Source: an uncultured delta proteobacterium
GTDB taxonomy: Bacteria; Desulfobacterota; Desulfobacteria; Desulfobacterales; JAFDCJ01
Assembly (NCBI GenBank): GCA_963769935.1
Contig: CAVYNY010000010.1
Span: forward strand, 224,001-288,000
DNA: 64,000 bases
Direction of reading: 5' to 3'
Of the stretch, positions 10,696 to 61,260 are shown in pieces (the first letter of the stretch is position 1; each line of letters starts with the position of its first letter). Below the pieces are notes generated by a model that saw nothing but the letters and a program-made list of their open reading frames with translations, ran no database searches and was not told the origin of the DNA. Both the position numbers and the translations under genes were made by a program.

Positions 10696-10744
10696 CCTGA
10701 ATCACCTCCCAGCCTTGCTTGGCAATGAATTCGCGAAATACGAT

Positions 10745-11068
10745 TCAGCGCTGCGCCGATCGCGGCGCTTTGCCGGCCAGCGGATTGTAGAGCTTCATAA
10801 TGGCGAATTTCATCACGTCCAGGGTTTTCATGTCCGTGATGATGCCCAGCAGCTTGTCTTCGGCTTCAGGCGGAAGCACACAGGCGTTCTTCGAATCGAA
10901 ATTCAACCCGGGAAAACCCTTGACGAGCTTCCTCTGGTCCTTCTGGCTCATCGCCACTTGCACAGCTTTTTTTCCGTCAATCTCGACGATCTTGTCCGCC
11001 ATGCCGGCGTCCTCAATTTTCTTTAGTTTGTCGTCTTTCAGAAACACGTTGATAGTGAAGTCTCCCAT
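10745..11068 (-). CDS. Small hypothetical protein
   Basis: 107 aa ORF with GGGAGG RBS and natural composition; family not recognised. Confidence 0.7.
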   Translation of the reverse strand: MGDFTINVFLKDDKLKKIEDAGMADKIVEIDGKKAVQVAMSQKDQRKLVKGFPGLNFDSKNACVLPPEAEDKLLGIITDMKTLDVMKFAIMKLYNPLAGKAPRSAQR

Positions 11069-11207
11069 GTGACGGCCTCCCTTTCGAGTTTTATTTTTTC
11101 TTATGACTCCTAAACACGTCGCTGCGAAATGAGTTGATACTTATTCGAGACCAAGGCGCAAGTCAAGTGCCAAGTCAAACAAAAGAGCAGGACGCGCTAT
11201 TTCCTTT

Positions 11208-12194: not shown

Positions 12195-12370
12195 AACACT
12201 GCTTATTATGCTTTACTAACCTATTTGCTGTTTAACCCCTTCAATCGACTTCAGCGATTCCAAATGTCTAAATTTATCCCGTGAAATACATGGTCATGTC
12301 AGCGAAGCGGATTTCACTGGGACCATCCAAACTCTCTAAACCATCTAAACGATCACAACGAACTAAATCC

Positions 12371-13681: not shown

Positions 13682-13939
13682 AGCAATTTCTTAGCTTAAG
13701 GTGATCCGGTTGCAATATGGCGTCGTCAAAGAGGTATCGGCAACAGTTAACATATGACTAAAATGATCTAAGATGCCTAAAATGAACGATGTTGATCATT
13801 TTTATGAATGAGCCCCCAATTCCTATCACTATGAGCTACGAACTATCAGCTATGAGCTCATATCATCCAGCATCAAGGATCTTTCATTATGGTAAAAAAA
13901 ATATCAACCACCGACAACCAGAGTGAATATCTGAAGTCA

Positions 13940-14835
13940 CTATCCGTTCAGAAGACTCGCCTTTACCAATATCTCCCTGATTTCCGACTTTTCCTTTTCG
14001 GACGCCGGCAGAAGCGGCGGGCGGGGTTCTCCGCCGAAATAGCCCAGCATATCCATGGCGGCCTTCAGGCCGGGGACGCCATAGGTGGCCGTTATGGCCT
14101 GATTGACCGGGATCATTTTAAGCTGCAGTTTTTTAGCCGCTTCAAAATTACCTTCTTTTACCAGCTCATATATTTCGACACACTGCCGCGGTGCGACATT
14201 GGCCAGGGCCAGCACGCCCCCGACACAGCCCAAAGCGAGGGCGCCGAATAAAGCGCCGGCGGTGCCGACCAGCAAATCGAAATTCGCATGGACATGATTT
14301 GCAAATTCACCCAGCTGAATCACATTGCCGGTGCTGTCTTTGATACCGACAATGTTGGCATGGCCCGATAACTCGGCGACCAGTTTGCAGGACATGTTCA
14401 CATGGGTAAATTTGGGAACATTGTACAACAAAATCGGGATCGGGGAATGATCGGCAACGGCTGTGAAGTAAGCCAGTAGCGCCGTTTCATTCATTCGACC
14501 GCCGAAATAGTGCGGCGTAACCACCAGCGCCGCATGGGCACCGAGCCCGGCACAATCACAGGTCAGATCAATGGTTTCTTTAGTTGATTCACAACCGGTG
14601 CCGGCAATAACCAGCATATGGTCCGGCGTCAATTCAACAGTCTTTTCAACGAGTTTTCTTTTTTCATCTGCCGCTAAGTAAACATACTCCCCGTTGGAAC
14701 CCATCACAACCAGGCCCTTAAGTCCGGTCCTGCTCCATTTTTCAATGTTGGCTGCCAGCCCATCATAGGCGATATTGCCGTTTATAAAAGGTGTGGGGAT
14801 GGGGGGAAAATTCCGTGTAAATCAATTTTGGACAT
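13940..14835 (-). CDS. DapA-family aldolase, 4-hydroxy-2-oxoglutarate aldolase-like; -1 frameshift in the homopolymer at 14801-14806
   Basis: Adding one C restores MSKIDLHGIFPPIPTPF...; GSNGE, YNVPKFT and GIKDS Schiff-base motif. Confidence 0.82.
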
Positions 14836-15133
14836 TCTAAAATTCCTTTGTTGAATTCCGAGAGTAACTTGCCATACTCAAAAATAGAGATAAAAAAACA
14901 CAAGGTGAAAAAATAGTGTCAGGTGTCGGTCCTTCGCCGCGCCGCAGCGGTTTCGGCCGCGCAGGCGGGTGTCTGAGTGAAAAAACGCAACTAATTTAAC
15001 CAAGGCAGTTTCCCGTGAAAATCCGGGACAAGAATGGCAGATGGTTCAGGGTCGAACTCCGCTTTGTGAAAAATGAGCAAATTTCATGATGACCATCTCA
15101 ACCATCTTAACGCCGACAGACTTCCCAAACGTC

Positions 15134-16393
15134 TTAACCAACCTGGTGATTCAAACCGGCCACCACCTGGGAAATATGACAGACTTTGGTCTTCAGCTCA
15201 TGCCGGCGAATGCCGTAGGACAACTGAATCATGCATGCCGGACAGGAAGTCACCAGCAAATCCGCATCGGTTTTTTTGAGATTTTCCATTTTCCGATCCA
15301 GCACCCTCTGGGACAGCTCATAATGGGAGAGTGCATAGGAGCCGGCTCCGCCGCAGCACCAATCCGCTTCGGGAAGCTCTCTATACTCAACACCTTCAAT
15401 TTTTTTAAGAATCTCTCGCGGTTCTTTGGTGATCTTTTGCCCGCGCGATGCATGGCAGGGATCATGATAGGTGACGACCACCGGAGCCTGCTTTTTTGCC
15501 GCCAGGTTGTCATTTGAAAATATCAACTCCACCGCATCCCGAAAACGCGGGGCTATATTTTCCGCCTGCGCCTGGCGTTCGTCGCCGGCAAAGATAGCCG
15601 GATATTTTTTCAAAAAGGATGCACAGCTTGAGCAATCCGTAACAATGACATCAAAATTATCGGAGGATAAGACATCCAGGTTTTTTGCGGCCAGCTTTTT
15701 GGCAGCGTCCAGGTCGCCATAGGAATGGGCCGGCAAACCGCAACAGCAATTATTCAGCAGAGTAACCGTTTTACCGATTTTTTTCAATAGCTGCAGCGTG
15801 GCTTCACCGGCTTCCTGTTGAATGACATCGACACCGCAGCCCACAAAGTAGCCGATGTGCTGCGTCTCTCCGCTGCCTTCGTAAACTCCGGGTTTGATGC
15901 GATCCCTAAACGGCAAGGGCGGAAGCTTTTCAATGATGCCTTCGGCCCGGGCAAAATCGCGGCCGAAAACCCGCAGCAGGCCCAGGGCGCGGGCCAGGCT
16001 GGATACGCCCGTGTTTTTCCCCAGCGCAACGGCGCGCGCCGCCAGATGCAACCGGCGGGGATAGGGTAGCAGATAATCAAAGAGCATCTTGTGAATAGGT
16101 TTGCGGTCAACCTTTTCAAGATATTCTGACCGGGCTTTAATCACCAGATCGGATGTGGGAACGGCCGGAAAGCAATTGGCCGTGCAGGCCCCACAACCCA
16201 GACAGTCAAAGAGCGGATCTTCGAGCTCTTTGTTCCAATCCAAACGCCCTTCGATGAGGGCCCGCAAAAGGGCCAGCCGGCCGCGGGCAACGCCGGATTC
16301 ATGACCGGTGGATCGAAATATCGGACAGGCAACCTGGCAGAAACCGCACTTGTTGCACTGTGAAATTTCATCATAGTATTTAGATATGTCCAT
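15134..16393 (-). CDS. glcF: Glycolate/D-lactate oxidase iron-sulfur subunit (two 4Fe-4S plus two CCG domains)
   Basis: CNKCGFCQVACP, CLGCGACTANC, CCGLP, YHDPCH and CCGGAGSY motifs. Confidence 0.88.
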   Translation of the reverse strand: MDISKYYDEISQCNKCGFCQVACPIFRSTGHESGVARGRLALLRALIEGRLDWNKELEDPLFDCLGCGACTANCFPAVPTSDLVIKARSEYLEKVDRKPIHKMLFDYLLPYPRRLHLAARAVALGKNTGVSSLARALGLLRVFGRDFARAEGIIEKLPPLPFRDRIKPGVYEGSGETQHIGYFVGCGVDVIQQEAGEATLQLLKKIGKTVTLLNNCCCGLPAHSYGDLDAAKKLAAKNLDVLSSDNFDVIVTDCSSCASFLKKYPAIFAGDERQAQAENIAPRFRDAVELIFSNDNLAAKKQAPVVVTYHDPCHASRGQKITKEPREILKKIEGVEYRELPEADWCCGGAGSYALSHYELSQRVLDRKMENLKKTDADLLVTSCPACMIQLSYGIRRHELKTKVCHISQVVAGLNHQVG

Positions 16394-16430
16394 TAAGAAT
16401 CCATTCCTTATTTCAAAATCAGCAAGCTTA

Positions 16431-16585
16431 GGGTTCACGAAAAAATTAATTCACAGTTTTGGCGTTGAGGCGCCCGCCCGGCAAGGCGCGAAAACGCAGG
16501 AATATCTGGATATTCCGAGCTTTCGCAACGCAGCCGGGCGGGATGCAGCGGCGTATAAAATGTGAAGTTATTTTTGAGTGAGCCC
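16431..16585. mobile_element. MITE-like non-autonomous element
   Basis: 25-bp imperfect terminal inverted repeats (20/25 match), TTA on both flanks, internal GC-rich hairpin, no transposase. Confidence 0.7.
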
Positions 16586-16643
16586 TTAGCCGGCTTAACT
16601 CTCAATCCGATACCCTTCGCGCTATGCTCTTTGCGCTATGCGC

Positions 16644-19235
16644 TTATACTTTCCCGGGCAGTCGACCGGGTGCAAAGATATTATCAGGATCAAGCTCAGC
16701 CTTTATCTTGTGAATAATCTTCCAAGCTGCTTGGGGCCGCCCGAACACGTCGCTGCGCTTTCTAAAATCATCGGGAGCCTTTTCCAACAGCAAATGTCCG
16801 TCATTTTCCGAGGCGAGACTGCATATCCTGTTCCATTGCTCTTCGCTCAGCTCCTCAAGACCGGCCAGTATCCTGCCGCAGCCGGAATCTAAAAATACAT
16901 TCGACAGCGACAGATTGTCATCAAGTGTCCTGAGGAAGCCGGCACACCGGTTCAATAGAAAATCACCCCGCAGGATGAAGGATGATCGTGCCAGTTTTTC
17001 GTAAATTTCACCAAAGGCGCCCTCGTGCACCGGATAGTCGGATTGCTGCATCACCTTCAGCCGGCCTTTCTGCAGCATGCTGCTGCATTTTTCGAGCTGA
17101 TAGTCGACGGTTTGGGAAAACCCTTCAAAACCGACGACGATATTCCAGATGCTGCGGTCAGCTTCGGCTCCCGGAGGATTTCCGGGCAGGCAGGTCACAA
17201 AAACCGGCTGGCAGTTGGACTTAAGAACCTCAAGGGCCGCGGCGGTGCATGCATCCAGCGAACCTTCGGCGGTTATCGCGGCACAGCGCTGCGGCAGAGT
17301 CGATACCCGCCAGGTGGCTTGCGTGATAAAACCGAGTGTTCCGGCCGAGCCGGTGATCAGACGGGTGATATCGTAACCGGCGACATTTTTAACCACCCTG
17401 CCGCCCGCAGATATCAAATTGCCGGCACTGTTGATGAAACGCAGACCCAGCAGAAGATCGCGCGGTGCGCCGTAGAGCAGACGTTCCGGTCCGCAGGCTG
17501 CCAGTGCAACCAGCCGGCCGATGGTGGAATTTTCTTTGAAAAAGGGCGGTCGAATCGGCAGCCACTGCTTGTGCTCCTGTAATTTTTCCTGCAGCGCTTT
17601 TAAAGTCATGCCCGTCCCTGTGGTAATCACCTGATTGGGCGGATCATACTCGATGACATCTGACAGGGAAGCACTTGCAAGATGCAGGGCATCGGGGGCC
17701 GACAGATTGCCGTATTGACTGTAGGTTCCGCCGCCCACGGGAATCACCTTCTGTCTCCGGGAGGCTGCGCTCTTGATCTGGGCCACAATTTCGGCGTCGG
17801 CGCCGTTGCCGGAAACGCCGCGGACCGCTTCTTCTTTATCGTCTTCTTTGGGCGGGGGAATCACCTTGCCGGGGTTGAGAATATTTGAGGGATCGAACGC
17901 ACGTTTCAATGCGCGCTGAACCATGAAATCATTTTCCGAAAAAACCATGCGCATGGCTTCCCGTTTCTCCAGCCCGATTCCGTGCTCACCGGATATGGTA
18001 CCACCCAGATCCACACAGGCTTGCATAATTTCCCAGCCGGCTTTTTCGACCCGGTGCAGCTGATCCTTGTCTCTGGAATCAAACAGCAGCAGCGGATGCA
18101 GATTGCCGTCGCCGGCATGAAAGACATTGCCGTGTTGACAGCCGTATTTTTTGGTAATCTCGGCCACCTTGGCCAGAGCCTCCGGCAATTTCGTGCGGGG
18201 CACGGTGGCATCGTTGACCAGATAATTCGGCGCCAGGCGGGCAACGGCACCGAAAGCACCTCGTCTGCCCTGCCATAGCCGGTTGCGCTCCGCATTGTCC
18301 TTGGCTTCCTGGATGTTGCGGCAATTGGTTTGCATGCAGATTTCCTGGATGCGCAGCGCCTGTTCCTTCAGGCCGGCTGCCGGACCTTCCACTTCAATGA
18401 TCAGAACGGCAGCGGCATCCCGCGGATAGCCGCAGGCATAGCTGTCCTCCACAGCTTTTATAATTGTGGCGTCCATCATTTCCAGCGTGTTGGGCAGGAT
18501 GCCGGCGGAAATGATGCCGGATACGGATTTTGCTGCATCGGCAATCGATTCGTAGATTGCCAGCATCGTGATGACCTTCTCTGCTTGGGGCAAAATGCGC
18601 ACTGTGATCTCCGTGACGATAGCCAGGGTGCCCTCGCTGCCGACCATGGCGCCGCGCAAATCCAGACCCGGCGGGTCAAGCGCGGCACCACCGATTCGCA
18701 TAATTTCACCATCCGACAGGATCATTTCCATTCCCAGGATATGATTGGTGGTTACCCCGTATTTCAGACAGCGCGGGCCACCCGAATTTTCACCGATGTT
18801 TCCGCCAATGGTCGAGACTTTCTGACTGGCGGGATCCGGTGCATAAAAATACCCCAAGGCTGCTGTAGCATCCTGCAGTTCCAGGTTGGTCACCGCCGGT
18901 TGAACCACCGCATAGCGGCTTTCGGGATAGATCCCCAGAATTCGATTCAGACGGGAAAGACAGATGATCAATCCCTGATCAGCCATAATCGTGCCGCCCG
19001 ATAGGTTGGTTCCAAATCCGCGGGGCACAAAGGCGACGGCTGCCCGGCGTGCGGCCCGCACGATCCGGGCGACCTGATCGCCATTGGCGGGAAAAACCAC
19101 AACACCGGGTTTTCCTTTGGCCAAAGAAGCATCATAAGAGTATAGTTCAGAGATAGTTCGAGACTTCGAAACCTGCTCTTTGCCGACAATGCTTTCCATC
19201 TCACGAATAAAAGTATCCGATATCATTTGGCTCAC
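16644..19235 (-). CDS. glcD: FAD-linked glycolate oxidase GlcD-GlcE fusion
   Basis: N-half PRGFGTNLSGG, PDPASQ, FHAGDGNLHP, GEHGIG; C-half GGRVVKNVAGYD and C-terminal LDPDNIFAPGR. Confidence 0.88.
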   Translation of the reverse strand: MSQMISDTFIREMESIVGKEQVSKSRTISELYSYDASLAKGKPGVVVFPANGDQVARIVRAARRAAVAFVPRGFGTNLSGGTIMADQGLIICLSRLNRILGIYPESRYAVVQPAVTNLELQDATAALGYFYAPDPASQKVSTIGGNIGENSGGPRCLKYGVTTNHILGMEMILSDGEIMRIGGAALDPPGLDLRGAMVGSEGTLAIVTEITVRILPQAEKVITMLAIYESIADAAKSVSGIISAGILPNTLEMMDATIIKAVEDSYACGYPRDAAAVLIIEVEGPAAGLKEQALRIQEICMQTNCRNIQEAKDNAERNRLWQGRRGAFGAVARLAPNYLVNDATVPRTKLPEALAKVAEITKKYGCQHGNVFHAGDGNLHPLLLFDSRDKDQLHRVEKAGWEIMQACVDLGGTISGEHGIGLEKREAMRMVFSENDFMVQRALKRAFDPSNILNPGKVIPPPKEDDKEEAVRGVSGNGADAEIVAQIKSAASRRQKVIPVGGGTYSQYGNLSAPDALHLASASLSDVIEYDPPNQVITTGTGMTLKALQEKLQEHKQWLPIRPPFFKENSTIGRLVALAACGPERLLYGAPRDLLLGLRFINSAGNLISAGGRVVKNVAGYDITRLITGSAGTLGFITQATWRVSTLPQRCAAITAEGSLDACTAAALEVLKSNCQPVFVTCLPGNPPGAEADRSIWNIVVGFEGFSQTVDYQLEKCSSMLQKGRLKVMQQSDYPVHEGAFGEIYEKLARSSFILRGDFLLNRCAGFLRTLDDNLSLSNVFLDSGCGRILAGLEELSEEQWNRICSLASENDGHLLLEKAPDDFRKRSDVFGRPQAAWKIIHKIKAELDPDNIFAPGRLPGKV

Positions 19236-45426: not shown

Positions 45427-46860
45427 ATGGAAAAGAGTCATATCCTTGTTATCGATGATGAACCTGTAATTTGCCAAGGCTGTCGTCTGACGCTTTCAGA
45501 GCAGGGTCTTGTGGTGGAAACCTGCCGCAGAGGCAAAGATGCCCTTGAAATGCTGCTTGGGGGAGACTACGATCTGGCTCTGCTGGACATGAAGCTCCCG
45601 GATATGGACGGAATGGAGATTTTACGGAACCTCAAAAACGAAAGACCCGAAGTATATGTAATTGTCATGACCGGCTATTCCAGCGTCAGAAATGCCGTGG
45701 AAGCTATGAAATTGGGGGCTTTTGACTATCTCTCCAAGCCGTTTTCGGATGAAGAACTGCTGATCGCTGTGGAAAGGGCCATGGAGAACAAACGCCTGAA
45801 AGAAGAAAATCTTGCCCTCCGCCATCAGCTCAGCGAGCGGTATGATTTTGGCAATATAATCGGCGAAGACCCCAAAATAATTGAAGTATTTGATCAAATA
45901 CGAAAGGTCGCCCCCACCGACAGCACGGTGTTGCTGAGTGGTGATAGCGGCACGGGCAAAGAGCTTTTCGCTCGCGCTATTCACGCCCACAGCAAAAGGG
46001 CTGCACGACAATTCATAGCGGTGGATTGCAGTACGTTCTCGGCATCTTTGTTGGAAAGTGAGCTGTTCGGGCATGTTAAAGGCGCTTTTACCGGTGCGGT
46101 TAAAGATAAAGCCGGCATCTTCGAAGTGGCCGACCACGGCTCCCTTTTTCTGGACGAGGTGGCCAACTTGGACGTGGATATTCAGGCCAAACTACTGCGA
46201 TCCATGGAAACCCAGGAATTCAAACCAGTGGGCGCCAGTCACCTGAAAAGATCGGATATGCGCATCATTGCCGCCACCAACCGGGATTTGAAAACCATGG
46301 TGGATGAGGGCAATTTCCGGGAAGATCTCTTTTACCGCTTAAACGTATTTCCCATCTTAATCCCCCCGCTCAGAGAGAGAAGGGATGATATTCCGAGGTT
46401 GCTTTACCATTTCTTGAAGCTATACTGTCGCCAGACCGGCAAGCGAATCGACGGTTTTTCTGACGATGCCCTCAGAATGCTGATAAACTATGATTGGCCG
46501 GGAAATGTTCGTGAACTCAAAAATGTGGTCGAACGGCTGGTTATCCTCGCCGATGAACAAATTCTGGATCACCAAAGCTTGTCCGACCATTGGGGGATAA
46601 AGCGTAATCACCTCCCGGACGTCGTCCCAAAAACGTTGACAGCGCTCAAAGCAGTGAAGCAGCACCTGCTGGAAAACCAATTCGGTCAAATCGAAAAGGC
46701 TTTCGTTCAAGAGGCCCTTTCCGCTGAAAACGGCAATATCAGCCAAGCAGCCAAGCGAGTGGGCATGCAGCGATCAAATTTTTCCGCGCTCGTGAAAAAG
46801 CATGGCTTGTCTGCAAATCCCGCCAAAATGGCTTCGAAGGAGGGGCAGCATCTGAAATAA
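45427..46860 (+). CDS. Sigma54-dependent response regulator (NtrC family)
   Basis: REC domain, GDSGTGKE, ESELFGHVKGAFTGA, WPGNVREL and Fis-type HTH. Confidence 0.95.
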   Translation: MEKSHILVIDDEPVICQGCRLTLSEQGLVVETCRRGKDALEMLLGGDYDLALLDMKLPDMDGMEILRNLKNERPEVYVIVMTGYSSVRNAVEAMKLGAFDYLSKPFSDEELLIAVERAMENKRLKEENLALRHQLSERYDFGNIIGEDPKIIEVFDQIRKVAPTDSTVLLSGDSGTGKELFARAIHAHSKRAARQFIAVDCSTFSASLLESELFGHVKGAFTGAVKDKAGIFEVADHGSLFLDEVANLDVDIQAKLLRSMETQEFKPVGASHLKRSDMRIIAATNRDLKTMVDEGNFREDLFYRLNVFPILIPPLRERRDDIPRLLYHFLKLYCRQTGKRIDGFSDDALRMLINYDWPGNVRELKNVVERLVILADEQILDHQSLSDHWGIKRNHLPDVVPKTLTALKAVKQHLLENQFGQIEKAFVQEALSAENGNISQAAKRVGMQRSNFSALVKKHGLSANPAKMASKEGQHLK

Positions 46861-47093: not shown

Positions 47094-47108
47094 TGGCACA
47101 GCCTTTGC
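47094..47108 (+). promoter_or_regulatory. Sigma54 (-24/-12) promoter
   Basis: TGGCAC-AGCCT-TTGC exact consensus spacing, about 85 bp upstream of the ATG at 47195. Confidence 0.8.
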
Positions 47109-47194: not shown

Positions 47195-47884
47195 ATGACA
47201 CGCCTACATGAAAATGCAGCAGTCGATTATGCTCCGCCCCCCCATATTTTAGTGATGGAAGATGATCAGAGTGTGGCCAAGGGGCTGGAGATGGTTTTGA
47301 GCGAGGAAGGCTATTTTGTAAATCTTGCAGATACGGGCGAGCTTGCCCTGGAAGCTTTTAAGCAAAAACGCTTTGATCTACTGGTGGCGGACTTGCGGCT
47401 GCCGGGTATCGGCGGGATGGAAGTCATCAAACAGGTCAAAGAAGCAACACCCGAAACCCAGATCATCGTGATTACAGGATATGGCACCACTGCCACAGCT
47501 GTGGAAGCCATGAGGCTCGGAGTTCATGATTTTCTGCCCAAACCCTTTACCGAAGATCAAATTAAGGCGGCCATCGGTGAAGCGCTTCAGAAGCAGGCGG
47601 AAAAACCTGCTGAAGCCGTTGTCAATAGGGCTGAAACAGAAGAACAAAAACTCATCCAGAAGCGGGAGATCCTTGCGGTATTAGGCCGGACTGCCGAAGA
47701 CATGGATTTCTGGACCGATTTGATGGAAAACGGATCTTCAGCCCTGACGGGCTATCAGCTTTCCAGCGAAGCCCAAGCGGCCATCGTATCCGGCGACTTG
47801 AGATGGATTAATGAAAATGTGGGAGAGCTTACCCAGAAACAACTGATGTTCATCTATAAGCGCCTGGAGCGGGAGGCCTGGTAA
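47195..47884 (+). CDS. Response regulator: REC domain plus small C-terminal helical domain
   Basis: ILVMEDD, DLRLPG and FLPKPF motifs; GGAGG RBS. Confidence 0.85.
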   Translation: MTRLHENAAVDYAPPPHILVMEDDQSVAKGLEMVLSEEGYFVNLADTGELALEAFKQKRFDLLVADLRLPGIGGMEVIKQVKEATPETQIIVITGYGTTATAVEAMRLGVHDFLPKPFTEDQIKAAIGEALQKQAEKPAEAVVNRAETEEQKLIQKREILAVLGRTAEDMDFWTDLMENGSSALTGYQLSSEAQAAIVSGDLRWINENVGELTQKQLMFIYKRLEREAW

Positions 47885-48171
47885 TACCACTCGGACTTTC
47901 CGTACGGACAGTTGAATCACCGGCGAGTCCTCGAAAGAAGTCGAAAGCCCGGCTTGCGAAGCAGCGCCGGGCCTCCTGGTGCTCGGGTCGATCAGAGCCT
48001 GACGGCTGGCCTTGAGCAAACAGGAATTTATCTTGCGGCGGCAGATGGGATAACACAATTAAAGCAGTTTAGGATGATGTTGACGGCAGAAACCGTTTTT
48101 TCTAACTTTATTTATTTTGGGTGCAAGTCACACCTTGCAATACGTGGTGGGGTTTGCGCGGTAGGTACCCC

Positions 48172-49410
48172 ATGACTTCCTCGACGGAATTTGAAAATTA
48201 TTTCCACGTCTTCAGAGATATCATTCGAGCCATGCACTCCAGCAGCAGCCTGAAGGACGTGCTGAATGTGGTCGTGACCAAATCCGCTGATGTTCTGAAT
48301 GCGAAAGGCACGTTACTCAGAATTCGCAACAAAGAAACCAACCAGTTCGAAGTCAGGGCCGCCTACGGGCTGGGCGAACACTATCTGTTCAAGGGCCCGG
48401 TCACCACGGAAAAGTTGCTGTCGAACCCAAGCCAACTGCACAAGGTGCAGATCATCACGGACATCTGGCAAGCTCCCCGGGTTGAGTACCCGCAGCAAGC
48501 GTGGGATGAAGGTGTCCGCATGATGGTTGATGTACCGCTGGCCATCAAAGATGAGATGGTAGGTCTGATTCGCATCTACCTCACACAGCCGCGCGAGTTT
48601 TCCAGGGATGAGTTGGATTTTCTCGTCACGGTCGCCGAGCAATGCGCCTGTGTCATTGAACGGGTCCAGCTGATGGAAAACCGGCAGGCTCAGTTCACTC
48701 ATCTGGCAGGCCAGATGGAAAAACTGTCCGCGCTGGGCCGCATGGCCGCGGGAATCGCCCACGAAATCAACAACCCGCTGACCGGAATCCTGCTTTACAG
48801 TTCAAACATGAGCAAGAAGGTTCCCCCAGGCGGATATCTGGAAGAAGGCCTGAAGATCATCATGCGGGAAACCCAGCGCTGCAAAACCATTATCCAGGGA
48901 TTGCTCGAATTTGCGCGCCATAGAGAACCGCAGAAGGTCTTGGCCGATATCAACGATATTATGGAAAACGCCCTCAGCATCGTGAGCAATGAGTTTCACC
49001 TGCGGCATGTGCAACTTGAAAAACAGCTGGCCGAAAACATGGCCAAAACGATGCTGGATAAAACCCAAATCGAACAGGTATTTGTCAACTTACTGCTCAA
49101 TGCATTGCAGGCGGTCACAGAAAACGGTCGGATCACCGTCCGAAGTGCCATGGACCGGGGGCAAGAAAGAATCGAGGTCGAAGTTGCCGATAATGGCTGT
49201 GGCATTACCGTGGAGGATATCAAGAAAATTTTCGATCCGTTCTACTCTACAAGGAACGACGGAACCGGGCTGGGCTTGTCGGTCAGCTACGGGATCATTA
49301 AGAGTCATGAGGGTGACATCCAAGTGTACAGTGAACCGCGCCGGGATACAAGTTTTAAGGTTGTGCTTCCTATCCTGGTTGAAGAATCCGAGAAAAAAGG
49401 GGGCGCATGA
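48172..49410 (+). CDS. Cytoplasmic GAF-domain histidine kinase
   Basis: GAF N-domain, AHEINNPL H-box, NLLLNA, DNGCG and GTGLGL; no TM segment. Confidence 0.92.
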   Translation: MTSSTEFENYFHVFRDIIRAMHSSSSLKDVLNVVVTKSADVLNAKGTLLRIRNKETNQFEVRAAYGLGEHYLFKGPVTTEKLLSNPSQLHKVQIITDIWQAPRVEYPQQAWDEGVRMMVDVPLAIKDEMVGLIRIYLTQPREFSRDELDFLVTVAEQCACVIERVQLMENRQAQFTHLAGQMEKLSALGRMAAGIAHEINNPLTGILLYSSNMSKKVPPGGYLEEGLKIIMRETQRCKTIIQGLLEFARHREPQKVLADINDIMENALSIVSNEFHLRHVQLEKQLAENMAKTMLDKTQIEQVFVNLLLNALQAVTENGRITVRSAMDRGQERIEVEVADNGCGITVEDIKKIFDPFYSTRNDGTGLGLSVSYGIIKSHEGDIQVYSEPRRDTSFKVVLPILVEESEKKGGA

Positions 49411-49775
49411 AACCGCTCAGAATACTGATCATCGACGATGAAAGCGTCATCTGTGATGCCTGCCGGCTGGTTCTATCGGAAAAAGGATATGGGGTCGATC
49501 ATTGCCTGACCGGCAAAGCCGGTTTGTTGGCCATCGAAAGGGGCAGATATGACGTGATCCTGCTGGATATGAAGCTGCCCGACATAGACGGCACGGAGAT
49601 TCTGAAGGCTGTTAAAGAGAAAGCGCTTGGACCGTGTATGGTTGTCATGACAGGCTATGCCACCATGTCGAATGCGGTGAAAGCCATGAAACTGGGGGCG
49701 GTCGATTATCTGGCCAAGCCGTTTAGCGATGATGAACTGATCGAAGCCGTCGAAAAATGCCGTGCCAACCGTTGA
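49407..49775 (+). CDS. Single-domain response regulator
   Basis: ILIIDDE, LLDMKLP and YLAKPF motifs. Confidence 0.9.
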   Translation: MKPLRILIIDDESVICDACRLVLSEKGYGVDHCLTGKAGLLAIERGRYDVILLDMKLPDIDGTEILKAVKEKALGPCMVVMTGYATMSNAVKAMKLGAVDYLAKPFSDDELIEAVEKCRANR

Positions 49776-49850: not shown

Positions 49851-52800
49851 ATGGAAAACAGGCAATTGAATACGGCAGTGCAGGGCGCCGTCATGGTCGT
49901 CGGCGGAGGGATTGCCGGCATGCAGGCGGCTCTGGACGTCGCAAATTCAGGCTACTATGTATATCTGGTGGAAAAATCTCCGGCCATCGGGGGGGCAATG
50001 GCCCAGCTGGATAAAACCTTCCCCACCAATGATTGTTCGATGTGAATCATCTCTCCCAAACTGGTCGAGGTCGGCCGGCACATCAACATCGAGTTGCTCA
50101 CCCTGTCGGAAGTGACGTCAATTGCGGGAGAAGAAGGCAATTTTGCGGTCACCGTTTTGCAGCAGCCACGCTACGTGGATCTGGAAAAATGCATTGCTTG
50201 CGGCCTTTGCGCCCAAAAATGCCCGAAAAAAGTTGATGACAAATACAATGAAAACTTGATTAAACGCAAAGCAATTTACGTTCCCTATCCCCAGGCGGTG
50301 CCCCTGAAATACGCCATTGACGCCGAAAACTGCATTTATCTTACCAAAGGGAAATGTGGCGCCTGTCAAAAGCTCTGCCCGGCGGGGGCTATCAATTTTA
50401 ACGACACCCAAAAGGAGATCAGGCTGCAGGTGGGCTCTGTCATCCTGGCGCCGGGATTTACCGCATTTGATCCGGCTCGCTTTGACTACTATTCCTATCT
50501 AAGCTCGCCGGATGTGGTAACCTCCCTCGAATTTGAACGGATTCTTTCGGCTACCGGGCCCTATTCCGGCCATCTGTTGCGCCCTTCCGGCATGCGTGGC
50601 CGGAGTCCGGCGGAACACCAGCCGCAAAAAATCGCCTGGCTGCAATGTGTGGGCTCCCGCGACCTCAACCGCTGTGACAACGGGTATTGTTCTGCGGTCT
50701 GCTGCATGTATGCCGTCAAGCAGGCTGTTATGGCAAAAGATCACAGCCGCACCGGCTTGGATTGCGCGATCTTTTACATGGACATGCGCACCCAGGGCAA
50801 GGATTTTGACCGCTACTACGAAAATGCCCAAAAAAGGGGCGTGCGCTTTATACCTGCCCGGATACACACCGTCCTGCCAATAGCGGGAAGCAACGACCTT
50901 CTGCTGCGCTATGTGGACGATAACGGCCGGCCGCAGGAAGAGGCCTTCGACATGGTGGTTCTTTCAACCGGCCTTGAAATCAGCCGGGATGCCATCGAAC
51001 TTTCGAATACCCTGGGTATAGAGCTGGACAAGTATCATTTTACCCGCTCGGACAGCTTTCATCCGGTGGCCACCTCAAGGCCGGGGATCTATGCCTGCGG
51101 GGCATTTACCGGGCCCAAAGACATCCCCCAATCGGTGATGGAAGCCAGTGCCGCGGCCTGCGCGGCCACCGAAAGCCTGGCTGCAGTCCGCAACACCCAA
51201 ACAAAAGCGGTTACAATACCGACGCAGCGCGACGTGAGCCGTGAGGTGCCCCGCATTGGGGTGTTCGTATGCAACTGCGGCATCAATATCGGCGGAATCG
51301 TCCGGGTACCGGAAGTCGCTGAATATGCCGGGACCCTGCCCGGTGTGGTGTACGTGGAAGAAAACCTTTTTACCTGTTCCCAGGACACCCAGGACAAAAT
51401 GACGGAAGTGATCCGCGAAAAGGCTCTAAACCGGGTGGTCGTGGCCGCCTGCACCCCCAGAACGCATGAAGGCTTGTTCCAGGAAACGCTGATTAATGCA
51501 GGGTTAAACAAGTATCTGATCGAAATGGCCAACATTCGCAACCAGGATTCATGGGTTCACTCCGATAATCCGGATGCGGCCACGAAAAAAGCCAAGGATC
51601 TTGTGCGCATGGCCGTGGCCAAGACCCTGTTTTCCAGCCCCCTGCAGGAGACCGCTCTGCCGGTGAGCCGGTCTGCGCTGGTGGTCGGTGCCGGTGTGGC
51701 CGGCATGACGGCCGCGTTGTCGCTGGCCCGGCAGGGATATCCGGTACATCTGGTGGAAAAATCCGACTTTTTAGGCGGCAACGCCCGCAACCTTCATAAA
51801 ACCTATCAGGATGAAGATATCGCGAGCTTTTTAGCGGATTTGATTCGACAAGTTGAAGCTGAACCACGCCTCAGCGTGCACCTGGGGACAACTATCAGCG
51901 CGGTTGAGGGGTTTGTCGGAAATTTTAGGATTGGGCTTTCAAACGGGTCTTCCCAGGAGACACTGAACTGCGGGGTTGCGATTCTGGCCATTGGCGCCGA
52001 AGAGTCCAAGCCGAAAGAATACTTGTACGGCGAGCATGCCGCCGTTGTCACTCACCTGGAAATGGATGAAATGCTCAGAAATGATGATCTGAGGATCCAG
52101 CGCGGCGGCGATGTGGTTTTCATCCAGTGTGTCGGCTCCAGAAACGAAGAACATCCCTATTGCTCGAAGGTGTGCTGTACCCACGCCATCAAGAGTGCTC
52201 TGGAACTGAAAAAGCGAAATCCTGAAATCAACGCTTACATTCTGTATCGCGATATCAGGACCTACGGAGAAAGAGAGGACCTCTACCGGGAAGCAAGAAG
52301 CCGGGGGATTCTTTTTTTCCGTTACCGGCCTGATGAAAGGCCGGAGGTCGCTGCGAGCGGCGACCGCGTGGCCGTCAGGTTTAACGATCCCATCCTCGGA
52401 CGCCGGCTGAGCGTCGATGCGGACATTCTTTGTCTGGCGGCGGCCATTGTGCCCCATGAAGATCTTGGTCTTGCCCGGTCTTTCAAGGTCCCCGTTGATG
52501 CCGATGGCTGGCTGCTGGAAGCCCACCAGAAGCTCAGGCCGGTAGAGTTCGCAACCGAGGGGGTTTTTCTGTGCGGAATGGGACACTATCCCAAACCGAT
52601 CGAAGAGAGCATCGCCCAGGCCCGGGCGGCCGCAGCCAAGGCGCTGACGATCCTGGCCTGCGAAAATATCATGGTCGGCGGGATTGTCGCTCACATCGAG
52701 CCCGGATTGTGCTCCGGGTGCCTGGGATGCATCAATGTTTGTCCCTATGCGGCCATCACGTTCAATGCTGAAAAAAGAATTGCCGAAGTTAATCAGGCCC

Positions 52801-52913
52801 TGTGCAAAGGATGTGGGGCCTGCGCGGCGGCATGCCCGTCGGAAGCGCCGGTTCTGGCCGGATTCAGCAACAGGCAGATTTATGCCCAGATCAAGAGTGC
52901 AATGAGCGCGTAA
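49851..52913 (+). CDS. hdrA: Heterodisulfide reductase subunit A-like selenoprotein (1020 aa, tandem FAD modules; Sec65 at TGA 50043-50045)
   Basis: [19 protein letters not shown] read in frame; GGGIAG and GAGVAG Rossmann motifs; two QCVGSR/CSxVCC motifs; several 4Fe-4S motifs. Confidence 0.92.
50061..50078 (+). promoter_or_regulatory. Bacterial SECIS-like hairpin of hdrA
   Basis: CTGGTCG-AGGT-CGGCCGG stem-loop 15 nt after the TGA. Confidence 0.7.
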
Positions 52914-53075
52914 GCCTGCTGGTGCCGGTTGTTTGAAATTATTTGAGTGTTTTTGGGGCCCCAATTGGCAATGTTGAAAAAACGGGAAGGGAAACAGCCC
53001 CGTTGCCGGCCGGACCCACCTCAAACTTTAGTTCCCGGAAAGGCTTTCCGGCTTTATCCGGGGTCAGGAGAAGAT

Positions 53076-53561
53076 GTGAATCAAGAACAGTTCGAACCGA
53101 AAATTCTGGCTTTTATATGTAACTGGTGTGCATACGGCGCCGCGGATCTGGCCGGCGTCAGCCGCCTGCAGTATCCCCCCAATGTGCGCGCGATTCGGGT
53201 CATGTGCTCGGCCACTGTATCGCCGCATCATATTTTAAGGGCGCTGCAGGATGGCGCCGACGGTGTTTTGGTCGGCGGGTGACACATCGGCGACTGCCAT
53301 TACCTGTATGGTAATCACATGACGATTAAACGAATCACGTTTGTGCAGGAACTGCTGCGCTTTATGGGTCTTGAGGCGCGTCTCCACCTGGCATGGATAT
53401 CTTCAGCCGAAGCCCAGAAATTCGTCCAGGTGGTCACCGATTTTACGGCAAAAATCAGAGCGCTCGGACCGAATCCCCTGAAAGGGTATAGCGGATTCGT
53501 AAAAGCGGCCGGGTTGGAACCTGCTGCCGGTTTTGCAGAAAGCCATCCCGCCCGGCAGTAG
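53076..53561 (+). CDS. mvhD: MvhD/FlpD [2Fe-2S] selenoprotein (Sec69 at TGA 53280-53282)
   Basis: [36 protein letters not shown] and WISSAE in one frame; GTG start after AGGAG. Confidence 0.92.
53295..53313 (+). promoter_or_regulatory. Candidate SECIS hairpin of mvhD
   Basis: TGCCAT...ATGGTA stem 12 nt after the TGA; loop less canonical. Confidence 0.5.
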
Positions 53562-53610
53562 AATCCAAGCGGCCGAATACCGGTGCGTCGACTTGGTAGT
53601 GGAGAAGGAT

Positions 53611-54429
53611 ATGCATACTGAAATAAAACGCTGGCTTGAAAACGGAATCGTGGACGTTTTTCTGGGTTACAAAATGGTGATGAAACACCCCTTGCCGTAT
53701 TGTTTTGTCAAAGAAAAAATTGAGGAGGTGGATGAGCTGATCGTCGGGCCGGCCCGTTATTCCCTCGAAAAGATCGCCACGCATATTGCCGCCGCAAAGC
53801 CCGACATTAAGATCGGAATGCTGGCCCGCGACTGCAACCAGCGGGCATTAAACGTTTTGGCTATCTGGAATCAACTCAACCCGGAGCATATCAAAACCGT
53901 CAACGTGAATTGCTGCCCGTCCAATCTCAAAAAACATGGGGATTGCTCTTACCTGGACTCGGAAACGCCGGGATCCTACAAACAGAAGGTGGGAGTGGAC
54001 AATACCCTTGGCCCGCCGGACGTTGAGCGATTCAGTCAAGAGGAGCGGCTATCCAGGTGGATGTATGAATTTCAGAAATGCATCAAGTGTTACGGATGCC
54101 GGAATGTCTGCCCGGTCTGTTTCTGTAAAGAGTGCAGTCTGGAACACCGGGATTTGATCGCAACCGGTGCGCTGCCGCCGGAAGTGCCGGTCTTCCATCT
54201 GATCCGGGCCGTGCACATGGCCGGCCGGTGCATCGACTGCGGGCTGTGTGAGGATGCCTGTCCGGTGGATATCCCGCTGCGGCTGCTCTACCGCAAGGTC
54301 AATGAAATCGTCGTCAATGTTTTTAATTATGAAACCGGATCCGGTCCCGGCCAGTCGCCTTTCAGCATTTTGGGTGATACGGTAACCTTGGAACCGAAAC
54401 CGATCGAACTCGCAAAAACGGAAAGCTAA
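53611..54429 (+). CDS. FdhB-like 4Fe-4S protein (methanogen formate dehydrogenase beta-like, shortened)
   Basis: CIKCYGCRNVCPVCFC and RAVHMAGRCIDCGLCEDACP motifs. Confidence 0.82.
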   Translation: MHTEIKRWLENGIVDVFLGYKMVMKHPLPYCFVKEKIEEVDELIVGPARYSLEKIATHIAAAKPDIKIGMLARDCNQRALNVLAIWNQLNPEHIKTVNVNCCPSNLKKHGDCSYLDSETPGSYKQKVGVDNTLGPPDVERFSQEERLSRWMYEFQKCIKCYGCRNVCPVCFCKECSLEHRDLIATGALPPEVPVFHLIRAVHMAGRCIDCGLCEDACPVDIPLRLLYRKVNEIVVNVFNYETGSGPGQSPFSILGDTVTLEPKPIELAKTES

Positions 54430-54443
54430 ACAAGGAGTAAGCA

Positions 54444-56489
54444 ATGCAGTGCAAGTTAGTGCCCTCGATCTGTTCATACTGCGGAACCGGTTGCGGAATC
54501 CTCTTTGAAGTGATTGATGGCAAAATCAACAGCACCCTGCCGATGAAAACCCATCCGGTCAATGAGGGCAAGCTGTGCATCAAAGGCTGGAACCTGCATG
54601 AGCATGTGAACAGCTTCATGCGCCTGAAGCAACCGCTGGTTAAGACGTTTGGCAGATTCATCAAGGCCGAATGGGACGAAGCCATTCAGATAACGGCGGA
54701 GCGTTTCCGCGAAATCATCGAAAAGTACGGCCCGGATGCCGTCGGCGTGCTGGTATCGGCCAAAATAACCAATGAAGAAAATTATCTGGCTCAAAAATTT
54801 GCCAGAGCTGTGATCGGCACCAACAACGTCGATCACTGCGCCCGTCTCTGACACTCTTCGACGGTGGCCGGTCTGGCCGCCGCTTTCGGCAGCGGTGCCA
54901 TGACGAATTCCATTGCGGATATCGAAGAGGCCGGCTGCATATTTGTAATCGGGTCCAATACCACGGCCTGCCACCCGCTGATCGCCCGGCGTATCTTCCG
55001 GGCCAAGGAAAAAGGTGCCAAACTGATCGTGGCGGATCCGAGAAACATCCAGCTTTCCCGCTTTGCGGATGTGGCGGTCAATCATCGGCTGGGCAGCGAT
55101 GTGGCCCTGCTGAACGGCATGATGCACATTATCATCAAAAACGGCTGGCATGCCAAAGACTACATTGCGCAGCGGACCGAGGACTACGGCGCTCTGGAAA
55201 AGGCCGTCAGCGAATACACCCCGGACAGGGTCGCCGGCCTGACCGGGGTTGACCGCAAGCACCTGGAACGCATGGCCGAACTCTACGCTACGCATCCGCC
55301 GGCCAGCCTTTTGTATGCCATGGGCATTACCCAGCACACCACGGGTGTAGATAATGTCAAGTCCTGCTGCAATCTGGCGATGCTGTGCGGCAATGTAGGG
55401 GTTCGCGGTGGCGGCGTGAATCCATTGAGAGGCCAGAACAATGTTCAAGGGGCCTGTGACATGGGAGGATTGCCCAACGTGCTGACCGGCTATCAGCCCG
55501 TGGCTGACCCGGGCGTCCGCAAAAAATTTTCCGAGGCATGGGGGAAACCGCTTCCCGAGCGCCCCGGTCTAACCATAACGGACATGATCCCCGCCATGCT
55601 GGAAGGAAAACTCAAGGCTTTGTATGTGATCGGGGAGAATCCCAAACTGAGCGACCCGGACTGGAACCACCTGAATCATGCCCTTAAAAAACTTGATTTT
55701 CTGGTTGTTCAGGAGCTGTTTTTATCGGAAACCGCCCAGGTGGCCGATGTGGTGTTGGCGGCCGCATCGGTGGCTGAAAAAGAAGGCACGTTTACCAATA
55801 CGGAACGCCGCTGTATGAGGATTCACAAGGCAATTGAGCCCATCGGCAACACTCTGGCTGACTGGGAAATCATCTGCCGGCTTTCAAACGCCATGGGCTA
55901 CGGGATGAATTACGAAACCCCTGAAGAAATATTCAACGAAATGGTATCCCTGACCCCCAAAAGCTATGCCGGCATGACGTACGAGCGGTTGGGCTTAGAC
56001 GGTCTGCAGTGGCCGTGTCCGGACGGCGATCACCCGGGAACTCCCTACTTGCACAAAGATCAATTTACCCGGGGCAAGGGCAAATTTCACGCCATCGAAT
56101 ATCAGGATCCAGCGGAAATGCCTGATGAAAATTACCCTTATTTTCTGACCACCGGCCGAATGTTTGCCCATTTTCACACCGGCACAATGACCAGAATTTC
56201 GCCGCATCTGGATGTCGAGCAGACAACCGGCTATGTTTCCATCAACCCGAAGGACGCCGAGGCCTTGGTAGTCAAAGAGGGAGATGTGCTGGTTCTTTCG
56301 TCGCGCAGAGGCCGGTTGGAAGCTCCGGCAAAAATAAGCCCTGCGGTAGAACCCGGCACCCTTTTTCTGCCCATCCACTTTGGCGAAAACCCGACCAATG
56401 TGCTGACGAGCGCCGAGGCGGTTGACCCCCTGGCCAAAATCCCGGAATTTAAGGTGAGCGCTGTTAAAGTTGAAAAATTGTCGGTCTAG
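54444..56489 (+). CDS. fdhF: Cytoplasmic Mo/W formate dehydrogenase alpha subunit, selenoprotein (Sec136 at TGA 54849-54851)
   Basis: CSYCGTGC, NNVDHCARL-U-HSSTVAGL, LRGQNNVQG and KIPEFK motifs; no Tat signal. Confidence 0.95.
54862..54882 (+). promoter_or_regulatory. SECIS hairpin of the fdh alpha gene
   Basis: CGGTGGCC-GGTCT-GGCCGCCG stem-loop 10 nt after the TGA. Confidence 0.78.
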
Positions 56490-60275: not shown

Positions 60276-61260
60276 CTATGGCATCAGCGCGGCCGGCACG
60301 GAAATACCTTTTTCTTTCAAATACTTGACTGTCCCCGGATGCAACGGAATGGGTGAGTATTTTACCGCGTTTTCCGGTGTCGTGTAGGAAGCCGAAGGAT
60401 GAATTTTAAGCAAATAGTCCTGATGATCGTAAAGGGCTTTCACCAGATTGTATACCAGGTCCGTATCCAGCGACTTCTGACAAATCATCACGTTCCAAAC
60501 ACCGATGGTCGGAACCGGTTTGTCGACTCCCCGGTAAACGCCGCCGGCCAGATCGACAGCCGAATATTCCTGATTGGCGGCCAGAATCCTTTTTTGCTGC
60601 TCGGGCGTAATGGCAATAATCTGGATATCATGGGTAGTTGCCAAGATCCAGAATGGAGCTGGTGCCGGGTCCCACCGACCAGAATCCCACATCGATTGTG
60701 CCGTCCCGCAATGCGTTGGCCGTTTCGGTAAATGACAGCCGGCTGTCGCTGTAAGAATCCAATGGAATCCCAAGGGCTTTGAACACCGTCTCGGACATAA
60801 AATTGGTTCCGCTGCCGGGGCTGCCCGAGCTGATTTTTTTTCCTTTGATCTGTTCAATGTCGGTGATTCCGCTTTTTTTCAGCACGACCACCTGCAGCAG
60901 GTTGGGATACATGACGGCCATCGACAGGATATTGTATTTCTTGCCCTGAAACTTGGACAGTCCGCTGAAACCGGCCACCGCCACATCCCCCATGACCTCA
61001 CCGACCACGGTTTCCCCCTTGTCGGCCAGTTTAACATTCTCCACGCTCGCGCCGGTGACCTCGGCCACCGCCTTAACGCCTTTGACGTACTTGGTCCAGA
61101 TCTCAGCCACGCCGCCGCCGTAGGGGTAGTAAATGCCGCCCGTGCCGCCCGTGCCGATGGAAATAAATTGCGTCTTGGCCGACGCGGGCCCCGCCAATAT
61201 GAGAACGGAGCACAATATCACAACGCCGGTCAGGAAAATTTTAAGATTCAATTTTTTCAT
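60276..61260 (-). CDS. TAXI-family TRAP solute-binding protein; +1 frameshift near 60640
   Basis: IGTGGTGGIYYPYGG, TGASVEN, GSPGSGT; C-half (LATTHDIQ...PLHPG) lies in another frame. Confidence 0.85.

Follow-up and report, generated by a model that had tools for sequence, protein, structure and literature searches.

HdrA, MvhD and FdhA are experimentally verified selenoprotein families (PMC13188914), and hdrA/hdrL-mvhD-fdhB-fdhA clusters were described in Desulfobacterium autotrophicum HRM2 as loci V and VI (Strittmatter 2009; PMC2702500), with selenocysteine (Sec) in hdrA1/A2, four mvhD and four cytoplasmic fdhA genes according to the accessible part of that paper. The same part names hdrB/C orthologues solely for locus VIII, reports no biochemistry, and lists response regulator and histidine kinase genes in a legend key. 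The methanogen FdhAB-MvhD(VhuD)-HdrABC complexes (7BKB, 9T1S; PMC13518236, PMC12350162, PMC5861303) are built from homologous FdhA, FdhB, MvhD and HdrA subunits. The BamE/BamF/BamD module of class II benzoyl-CoA reductase has, as far as the accessible text goes, an MvhD-type adaptor and an HdrA dimer that is fused and permuted, with a CxxC/U pair and two FADs, of which one bifurcates and the other does not (bioRxiv 10.64898/2026.04.10.717634). Archaeal type II hdrA-mvhD-fdhB-Molybdop clusters (PMC12054007, excerpts) and the HdrBCA-MvhD-FdhBA sets of Desulfobacula toluolica Tol2 and Chloroflexi DscP3 (PMC5736913, PMC6085437, excerpts) complete the closest described systems. As of 2018, the function of formate dehydrogenases linked to Hdr was called unknown for sulfate reducers (PMC6085437, excerpt), and a full-text literature search, with most subscription journals outside its coverage, returned no title or abstract describing a purified HdrBC-less Fdh-HdrA complex.

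The locus described here lies in a 64,000-nt stretch of contig CAVYNY010000010.1 (hereafter the window) from a likely sulfate-reducing bacterium whose genome carries dsrA, qmo/apr-like genes and ACS. Compared by description, its gene set and order are those of HRM2 loci V and VI, and response regulator and histidine kinase genes lie beside the operon as well. The operon is thus of a known type, common in relatives, and adds no new kind of system; the novelty implied by the original prediction does not survive, because the gene order with Sec-containing members is already in the accessible part of PMC2702500 and the families are verified in PMC13188914.

With the methanogen complexes (as accessible in the reports cited above) the locus likewise shares Sec at the HdrA CxxU motif and at the FdhA metal ligand, equivalents of K409/E356 and an identical N-terminal Cys spacing in FdhA; it differs in its fused-dimer HdrA, in an FdhB that is 110-140 residues shorter and probably has no FAD/F420 site, and in the absence of hdrBC from the operon. 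CoM-S-S-CoB would not be expected in a sulfate reducer. The Bam module differs in taking its input from BamGHI rather than FdhAB, and the present locus has neither a BamBC output nor BamD in cis and places Sec at an MvhD cysteine other than that of BamF Sec19; a BamE-like protein encoded in the genome shares 48% identity with the operon HdrA. The archaeal clusters, like this one, place MvhD, FdhB and an FdhA homologue after a type II HdrA, but, in the accessible excerpts, hdrBC is included, F420 is used via a full FdhB and the molybdopterin subunit is predicted to be dead, whereas Sec-His is kept and FdhB reduced in our locus. Tol2 and DscP3 also combine Sec-FdhA with MvhD and HdrA, but have hdrBC in cis. 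Judged from sequence, the details that appear to be new are a fused-dimer HdrA with a single bifurcation-type flavin, a shortened FdhB and a predicted conserved sigma-54 promoter. Together with three partner classes, these narrow the question of the route from formate to ferredoxin in sulfate reducers and syntrophs. The features of the locus are as follows.

45427..46860, + strand: NtrC-type sigma-54 activator (receiver, AAA+ and HTH domains; Pfam)
47094..47108, + strand: predicted sigma-54 -24/-12 promoter motif (no mismatch to the consensus)
47195..47884, + strand: response regulator with an 80-aa C-terminal helical domain (Pfam)
48121..49410, + strand: cytoplasmic GAF-histidine kinase (Pfam; the start may be an ATG ~50 nt downstream)
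49407..49775, + strand: single-domain response regulator (Pfam)
49851..52913, + strand: hdrA, 1020 aa, fused dimer (type II, BamE-like; domain and structure comparison)
50043..50045, + strand: UGA, putative Sec65 of HdrA (NDCSM-U; ORF reading, homologue alignment, conservation)
50061..50078, + strand: SECIS-like hairpin of hdrA (folding, cross-locus conservation)
53076..53561, + strand: mvhD, 161 aa, [2Fe-2S] adaptor (PF02662; 5odc_D, 7bkb_F)
53280..53282, + strand: UGA, putative Sec69 of MvhD (GG-U-HIGDCHY), at a conserved Cys of the GGCHxGDCHY motif (alignment, conservation)
53299..53315, + strand: SECIS-like hairpin of mvhD (folding, cross-locus conservation)
53611..54429, + strand: short fdhB-like Fe-S protein, 272 aa (FdhB fold of the model)
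54444..56489, + strand: fdhA, 681 aa, Mo/W-bisPGD formate dehydrogenase (TIGR01591 above cut-off; best PDB match 9t1s_L)
54849..54851, + strand: UGA, putative Sec136 of FdhA (CARL-U-H), metal ligand position (alignment, conservation)
54862..54882, + strand: SECIS-like hairpin of fdhA with a compensatory C-G/A-U pair (folding, covariation)

The four genes run in the order hdrA-mvhD-fdhB-fdhA on the + strand (49851..56489), with no hdrBC in the locus, and adjoin one another in 64 of 75 related loci. Eighty related loci, HRM2 not among them, were kept from 475 confirmed, and the distant matches L141-L145 were left out of the synteny counts. L107 (two stops) was excluded from the HdrA alignment, L081 from the FdhB alignment and C34 from the tree, a FastTree tree with long-branch warnings that was used solely for the nesting of L131/L132.

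Within the cluster, hdrA, mvhD and fdhA each contain exactly one internal in-frame stop, always TGA, and read-through yields proteins of 1020, 161 and 681 aa. The TGAs at 50043, 53280 and 54849 had been proposed to fall on Cys/Sec positions, and alignment and conservation confirm this: homologues align across all three codons, with Cys in 8rvu and X (Sec) in 9sfi for HdrA, Cys in 5odc for MvhD and X in 9t1s for FdhA, and TGA is kept at the motif in 59/60 hdrA, 71/72 mvhD and 74/74 fdhA sequences from the window and the 75 related loci. The two exceptions (one hdrA, one mvhD) are Cys codons with altered hairpins. HdrA Sec65 is the equivalent of Sec197 in M. maripaludis HdrA (PMC13518236, excerpt) and of the second Cys of the C59-C62 pair in BamE. 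The hairpins expected downstream are present and conserved, at a spacing of 10-16 nt instead of the 10-15 nt given originally, with stems starting at +16 (hdrA), +17 (mvhD) and +11 (fdhA) after the codon. Stems are intact in 51/51, 62/62 and 59/67 distinct 45-mers of hdrA, mvhD and fdhA, respectively, and one fdhA stem pair, either C-G (30) or A-U (37), is paired in 67/67. Synonymous recoding of the window sequence keeps all stem pairs in only 692, 712 and 1377 per 20000 trials, frequencies that are not p-values since the stems were picked after folding. Within this genome, a hairpin follows 5/5 TGA-type hdrA motifs and 0/2 Cys-type ones. The three operon genes likely encode selenoproteins. 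Table-11 ORF calling breaks three of the cluster's four genes apart, which makes operons of this kind prone to mis-annotation.

The genome also encodes tRNA-Sec (selC), selB and two selD copies; selA is present as three pieces across two frameshifts in the assembly. Were selA truly broken, the TGAs would be genuine stops in this strain and the operon silent or decaying, which we regard as highly improbable. Both EF-Tu genes are likewise frameshifted, indicating that the assembly carries indel errors, and of 15 genomes from the same genus, 14 have an intact selA, the gene not being found in the remaining one. Apart from the Sec TGAs the operon has no other lesion, short-read contigs over it contain no indels, and the presence of selB, two selD copies and tRNA-Sec also counts against this reading. 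The selA frameshift is probably an assembly error.

HdrA is arranged as TrxR1, an inserted 2x[4Fe-4S] domain, an N-type cluster domain, TrxR2 and a C-terminal 2x[4Fe-4S] domain; with two TrxR/FAD domains in permuted order and a [4Fe-4S] motif on each, it falls in type II. These domains fill the 1020 aa, and neither an inserted GltD-like NAD(P)H domain, the HdrL/type III trait, nor a Fer4_20 match was found. TrxR1 carries C62-x-x-U65, E229 and K290, the last two equivalent to E356 and K409 of 5ODC and present in 58/58 orthologues. TrxR2 has D739 and K781 and no CxxC, its lysine being kept in 28/58 orthologues and replaced in 30/58, and glutamate occurring in 0/58. In the group labelled partner-less, all cluster cysteines are kept wherever aligned (42 to 44 of 44), those of TrxR2 in 44/44. 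The non-bifurcating FAD of BamE has Gln at the lysine position and was assigned a structural role (bioRxiv 10.64898/2026.04.10.717634, excerpt); the drifting lysine and missing CxxC match FAD2 to it, and the FAD2 domain is probably structural. Only FAD1 keeps invariant bifurcation residues, pointing to one bifurcating flavin, not two. The idea of a formate-linked HdrA module is supported, its first flavin keeping the bifurcation residues, while the plain HdrA label gives way to a tandem fused-dimer type.

The FdhB-like protein has an FdhB fold, the best matches of its model being FdhB/ElpB subunits of Fdh-Hdr and Elp-Hdr complexes, but it is a shortened form, with 272 aa versus 380-414 aa in Fdh-Hdr complexes. 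It lacks ~27 N-terminal and ~110 internal residues, and its alignment with the solved chains begins near their residue 30. The protein is probably a wire without an FAD/F420 site, the loss of FAD being judged from an N-terminal motif. An MvhD-FdhB fusion protein also exists (P0105). FdhA keeps Sec-His and, as proposed, is cytoplasmic: it carries no twin-arginine leader and starts directly at the Fe-S motif. It resembles FdhF, the CO2 reductase subunit of HDCR (7qv7). Other cytoplasmic FdhA paralogues are seen by eye in the genome's ORF list, one of them beside nuoE/F-like genes.

Gene order, UGAs, hairpins and catalytic and cluster residues are read from the sequence, and the electron path is modelled by homology to the Fdh-MvhD-Hdr and BamE structures. 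The operon products likely assemble into the flavin core of an HdrA-type bifurcating enzyme together with the arm through which formate electrons enter, with the high-potential exit subunit, of HdrD, HdrBC or membrane HdrF type, likely coming from a gene elsewhere in the genome. We give the whole reading, formate-driven bifurcation to ferredoxin with such a partner in trans, a probability of about 0.5. FdhA would oxidise formate and hand the electrons to the short FdhB, from which they would reach the first FAD by way of the C-terminal HdrA clusters and the MvhD [2Fe-2S] cluster. From FAD1, one electron would go to ferredoxin via the C62-U65 pair and then the inserted ferredoxin domain, and the other would travel via the TrxR1 [4Fe-4S] cluster and the trans partner to DsrC, ETF or menaquinone. 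The rnfC match in the genome is below cut-off, which counts against this scheme as to a sink for reduced ferredoxin, and the frameshifted selA of the assembly also weighs against it.

The absence of hdrB and hdrC from the cluster holds in a search of the window, whose sole CCG-domain gene, a GlcF-like one ~34 kb upstream (15134-16438), was rejected as partner, as it lies beside its own FAD-oxidase gene and has no match in the 75 loci. The hdrBC/hdrD genes sought elsewhere do exist: 31 CCG-domain matches in the genome include HdrB, Sec-HdrD, BamD and HdrF-like proteins, and co-localisation of hdrABC with fdh has been stated to be dispensable (PMC6085437, excerpt), which makes the absence of adjoining hdrBC unremarkable. 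Sequence comparison thus offers several ordinary candidate partners in three classes (HdrD, HdrBC, HdrF). Counting against a partner in trans, the three HdrD-type genes, the hdrBC pair and BamD inspected here all lie beside their own hdrA; only HdrF-like and DsrK/TmcB-like genes do not adjoin one, and one HdrF-like copy neighbours glpAB. Partners in cis occur at 4 of 42 fully flanked sister loci, as an upstream HdrF-type membrane protein plus HdrB (three) or a downstream hdrC plus CCG gene (one), the latter locus nesting among partner-less loci in the FastTree tree. No CCG gene occurs in the fetched flanks of 37/42, and such persistence also fits a partner-free enzyme. At L064 the same arm, mvhD-fdhB-fdhA, stands downstream of bamE/bamD and upstream of etfBA, a position that suits an input module. 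Several HdrD homologues occur in all five further operon-bearing genomes tested, and 7 of 14 hdrD loci fetched from relatives have no hdrA within ~8 kb. HdrC/HdrD homologues are present in 14/14 relatives with the operon, which says little, as they are common to the whole group (52/61 genomes).

[quoted passage not shown] ACS in the genome, the likeness of FdhA to HDCR FdhF and the CO2-reducing role hypothesised for the fdhAB-hdrL-mvhD cluster of Desulfurivibrio dismutans (PMC12142623) speak for this direction, which we nevertheless consider unlikely given that no Wood-Ljungdahl gene is found among the annotated neighbours, the operon sits behind its own sigma-54 switch, other cytoplasmic FdhA paralogues exist and the Fdh-MvhD arm is the input side in solved homologues. 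We lend little credence to a formate:ferredoxin oxidoreductase, or a CO2 reductase driven by ferredoxin, that does not bifurcate and has HdrA as a mere Fe-S/selenenylsulfide wire with vestigial flavins: although the operon encodes no high-potential subunit, formate (-430 mV) lies near ferredoxin (-420 mV standard; PMC5861303, excerpt) and a Cys-Sec pair has been proposed as a relay by itself (PMC13518236, excerpt), full conservation of E229/K290 and the TrxR1 exit cluster is hard to square with an idle flavin, the same positions drifting in the second half.

A self-contained four-subunit selenoenzyme, using the second HdrA half ([4Fe-4S] plus FAD2) as high-potential exit to a diffusible acceptor in place of HdrB/C/D, would be the first HdrA-type bifurcation without a heterodisulfide-reductase-type subunit, and widespread in sediment Desulfobacterota. 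The invariant TrxR2 cluster cysteines, the many loci without a nearby CCG gene and K781 in the window HdrA favour it, as do seven fully flanked loci with NuoEF/NuoG-like domains plugged into a split HdrA, also without hdrBC. Against it stand the FAD2 lysine and glutamate replacements (the latter in 58/58), HdrB/HdrC in cis at close sister loci, and a cluster motif lying, by fold comparison, where an NAD(P)H site would be in both TrxR halves. The suggestion that type II HdrA may be active in both of its halves (PMC12054007, excerpt) also speaks for it, and the structural role assigned to the second FAD of BamE against it; on balance this arrangement seems improbable.

The adjacent sigma-54 two-component system probably switches the operon on. 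An NtrC-type activator lies upstream of the cluster in most related loci and likely regulates the operon. The sigma-54 motif recurs with at most one mismatch in 25 of 31 related intergenic regions versus 1 of 31 on the reverse strand; this cross-locus conservation alone counts, since a window-wide scan allowing two mismatches is at chance level, as are sigma-70 and terminator scans. The 80-aa helical domain of the first response regulator occurs once in the genome, tied to the operon, with a weak Os1348-family match below cut-off. Searching longer proteins for this domain, a weak test, yielded three hits, each of them a response regulator. RNA-library contigs X6 and X15 span the operon and neighbouring genes; as contigs, they show neither transcription nor its level. 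Cultured carriers of the operon are Desulfosarcina alkanivorans PL12 (locus L085), Desulfopila sp. IMCC35006 and Desulforhopalus sp. IMCC35007.

The operon consists of four co-oriented genes, each with a ribosome-binding site.

Genes of the operon in the window
49851-52913, forward strand: hdrA, one internal stop, TGA at 50043
53076-53561, forward strand: mvhD, one internal stop, TGA at 53280
53611-54429, forward strand: short fdhB-like gene
54444-56489, forward strand: fdhA, one internal stop, TGA at 54849

Reading the TGA codons as selenocysteine (Sec) yields full-length HdrA, MvhD and FdhA, and the read-through products match PF02662 and, above its cut-off, TIGR01591; HdrA models are matched below their cut-offs. 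Alignment with solved structures places the TGAs at 50043, 53280 and 54849 on Cys or Sec positions; the original prediction of open frames continuing past three such codons is borne out, as are the hairpins it had placed after them. An FdhB scan of genome contigs confirmed 475 stretches, of which 80 were kept and the 75 close ones (L066-L140) analysed. Motif matches across these loci and the window have TGA at this codon in 59/60 cases for hdrA, 71/72 for mvhD and 74/74 for fdhA, and the stem 3' of the TGA is intact in all 51 hdrA, all 62 mvhD and 59 of 67 fdhA distinct sequences; because kin are not independent, these counts indicate conservation rather than separate origins. Third codon positions are nearly frozen within the hdrA and mvhD stems whereas those flanking them vary, and one fdhA stem pair covaries, C-G (30) versus A-U (37). 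Among hdrA motifs of the source genome, the hairpin accompanies 5/5 of the TGA type and 0/2 of the Cys type.

The Sec machinery implied by the prediction is recovered in part: the source genome (96.7% complete) contains tRNA-Sec, selB and selD, the last in two copies that both carry a TGA of their own. Two frameshifts, however, interrupt selA; this weighs against a clean outcome and could be taken to mean that the operon is dead. Since both EF-Tu genes are also frameshifted and 14 of 15 genomes from the same genus have an undamaged selA, the damage is likely an assembly error, and a dead operon is hardly credible. Short-read contigs over the operon contain no indels, and one spans the mvhD TGA without differences. 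A TAXI-type TRAP receptor in the window (60276-61260) is split by frameshifts like selA and both tuf genes on contig C22, and the assembly appears indel-prone. ARAGORN calls a tRNA-Pyl on contig C11 (285724-285797) of the same genome, which may use both selenocysteine and pyrrolysine.

The cluster belongs to a known Desulfobacterota type that is real, common and already described. According to PMC2702500, loci V and VI of D. autotrophicum have the hdrA/L-mvhD-fdhB-fdhA arrangement, and Sec occurs in hdrA, mvhD and cytoplasmic fdhA genes of that organism, not necessarily all in one locus. D. multivorans carries Sec in the same three families, all verified selenoprotein families according to a 2026 review (PMC13188914). 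PMC6085437 had counted Hdr-linked Fdh in two sulfate reducers and described its role as unknown. Record titles of the nearest homologues name Desulfobacterales or Desulfobacteraceae; the source genome has dsrA and ACS, and inspection of ORFs around its HdrA matches revealed aprBA-qmoABC-sat and a bamBCDEF-like cluster. From dsrA, ACS and aprBA-qmoABC-sat, the organism probably reduces sulfate and possesses the Wood-Ljungdahl pathway.

HdrA joins two HdrA units in a permuted tandem; it is of the 'type II' described in PMC12054007 and has the architecture of BamE (2026 preprint, bioRxiv 10.64898/2026.04.10.717634). With residues placed against 5ODC numbering, unit 1 keeps E229 and K290 in 58/58 orthologues, together with C62-x-x-U65 and an inserted ferredoxin domain; in unit 2 the glutamate is D or Q in 58/58, the lysine is present in 28/58 and there is no CxxC. 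A matching contrast exists in the preprint's BamE, where one FAD bifurcates and the other does not. The HdrA Sec is equivalent to U197 of M. maripaludis HdrA, for which PMC13518236 records a selenium-sulfur bond and proposes a relay role. The FdhB model folds like FdhB/ElpB (pLDDT 77; Foldseek E 8e-10 and 3e-9); it starts near residue 30 of these proteins and misses ~110 internal residues, suggesting an Fe-S wire without FAD. The family is common, with 1529 proteins at E<=1e-10 when longer FdhB homologues are counted in. FdhA keeps the Sec-His pair and has no Tat leader, in agreement with the predicted cytoplasmic location.

In function the cluster would resemble the methanogen Fdh-MvhD-HdrA arm, but its short FdhB and the lack of hdrBC in cis keep it from full membership of that family. 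In the most likely reading, to which we assign a probability of about one half, formate would be oxidised at FdhA and electrons would pass through FdhB, HdrA and MvhD to the first flavin (FAD1), where they would bifurcate to ferredoxin and a trans-encoded HdrD, HdrBC or HdrF subunit. The search for such genes elsewhere was productive: 31 CCG-domain matches in the source genome include HdrB, BamD, HdrF-like genes and a Sec-containing HdrD, and several HdrD homologues occur in 5/5 other operon-holding genomes. Seven of the 14 HdrD loci fetched from the 27 listed there have no hdrA within ~8 kb, and hdrD thus frequently lies apart from hdrA in this group; at an eighth, nearby hdrA appears only as distant 23-30% matches. 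Against a trans partner, the inspected soluble HdrD, HdrBC and BamD genes of the source genome all adjoin another hdrA, and 52/61 genomes have HdrC/D homologues regardless of the operon.

A self-contained enzyme without an HdrB/C/D partner is improbable, as is, to the same degree, a wire that does not bifurcate, with which the residues kept in unit 1 would be hard to reconcile. The enzyme running in reverse is somewhat less remote, though still unlikely. For the preferred bifurcating reading, the final acceptor might be DsrC, a speculation made for a related complex (PMC5947623); ETF as acceptor has been shown for BamD.

The Sec-containing HdrD (TE-U-GH) lies at 7042-8361 of L001 (contig C9 of the source genome) in an hdrA-mvhD-hdrA-mvhD-hdrD-metF cluster, and an HdrA with an internal response-regulator receiver domain sits beside hdrC and hdrB in L006 (7323-10316; C11). 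Near the end of C16 (L146:12100-16200), hdrB and HdrF-like membrane Fe-S genes lacking an hdrA are present twice, as an inverted duplication with frameshifts that may be an assembly artefact. On the minus strand of the window (15134-19235), a GlcF-like CCG protein adjoins an 863-aa protein carrying FAD-oxidase (GlcD/lactate dehydrogenase-like) domains. In another genome (L064; G023:C7:146000-165900, ~2000-17300), a run of AOR/bamB, bamC-like, bamD, bamE-like and mvhD genes is followed directly by short fdhB, frameshifted fdhA, etfB, etfA and a membrane Fe-S oxidoreductase; the layout suggests a benzoyl-CoA reductase of class II with FdhAB replacing BamGHI as input, and so formate-driven ring reduction.

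All four genes are adjacent in 64/75 related loci; of the other 11, ten run into a contig end and one (L130) has no partner genes. Flanks of >=2.5 kb upstream and >=1 kb downstream are available for 42 loci: 28 share the window's upstream regulators, nine have nuoF-like genes upstream (seven with NuoEF inside a split hdrA), three an HdrF-type membrane protein and HdrB directly upstream, one hdrC and a CCG gene downstream, and one none of these; in L068 a fifth CCG match lies on the opposite strand. The sigma-54 motif at 47094 recurs in 25/31 comparable intergenic regions versus 1/31 on the reverse strand, suggesting one transcript from there through fdhA.

Split hdrA occurs in L088, L098, L099, L102, L103, L106, L109 and L113, and in L002 (C16:266000-276500) of the source genome. 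The break follows the Sec-bearing N-terminal piece, nuoE and nuoF are inserted there, a NuoG-like domain is fused at the inserted ferredoxin domain, and no hdrBC is nearby; with this layout, the low-potential exit would be occupied by an NAD-linked, HydABC-like module. In the tree, the seven split copies included group into a single clade.

The source genome has one copy of an 80-aa helical domain that travels with the operon. Its fusion partner is a receiver domain in the window and a GcvH-like protein in both L126 and L131; the domain has a weak Os1348-family match below cut-off.

Occurrences of the 80-aa helical domain
47600-47884, window
1277-1522, related locus L126
5966-6184, related locus L131
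2394-2600, related locus L132
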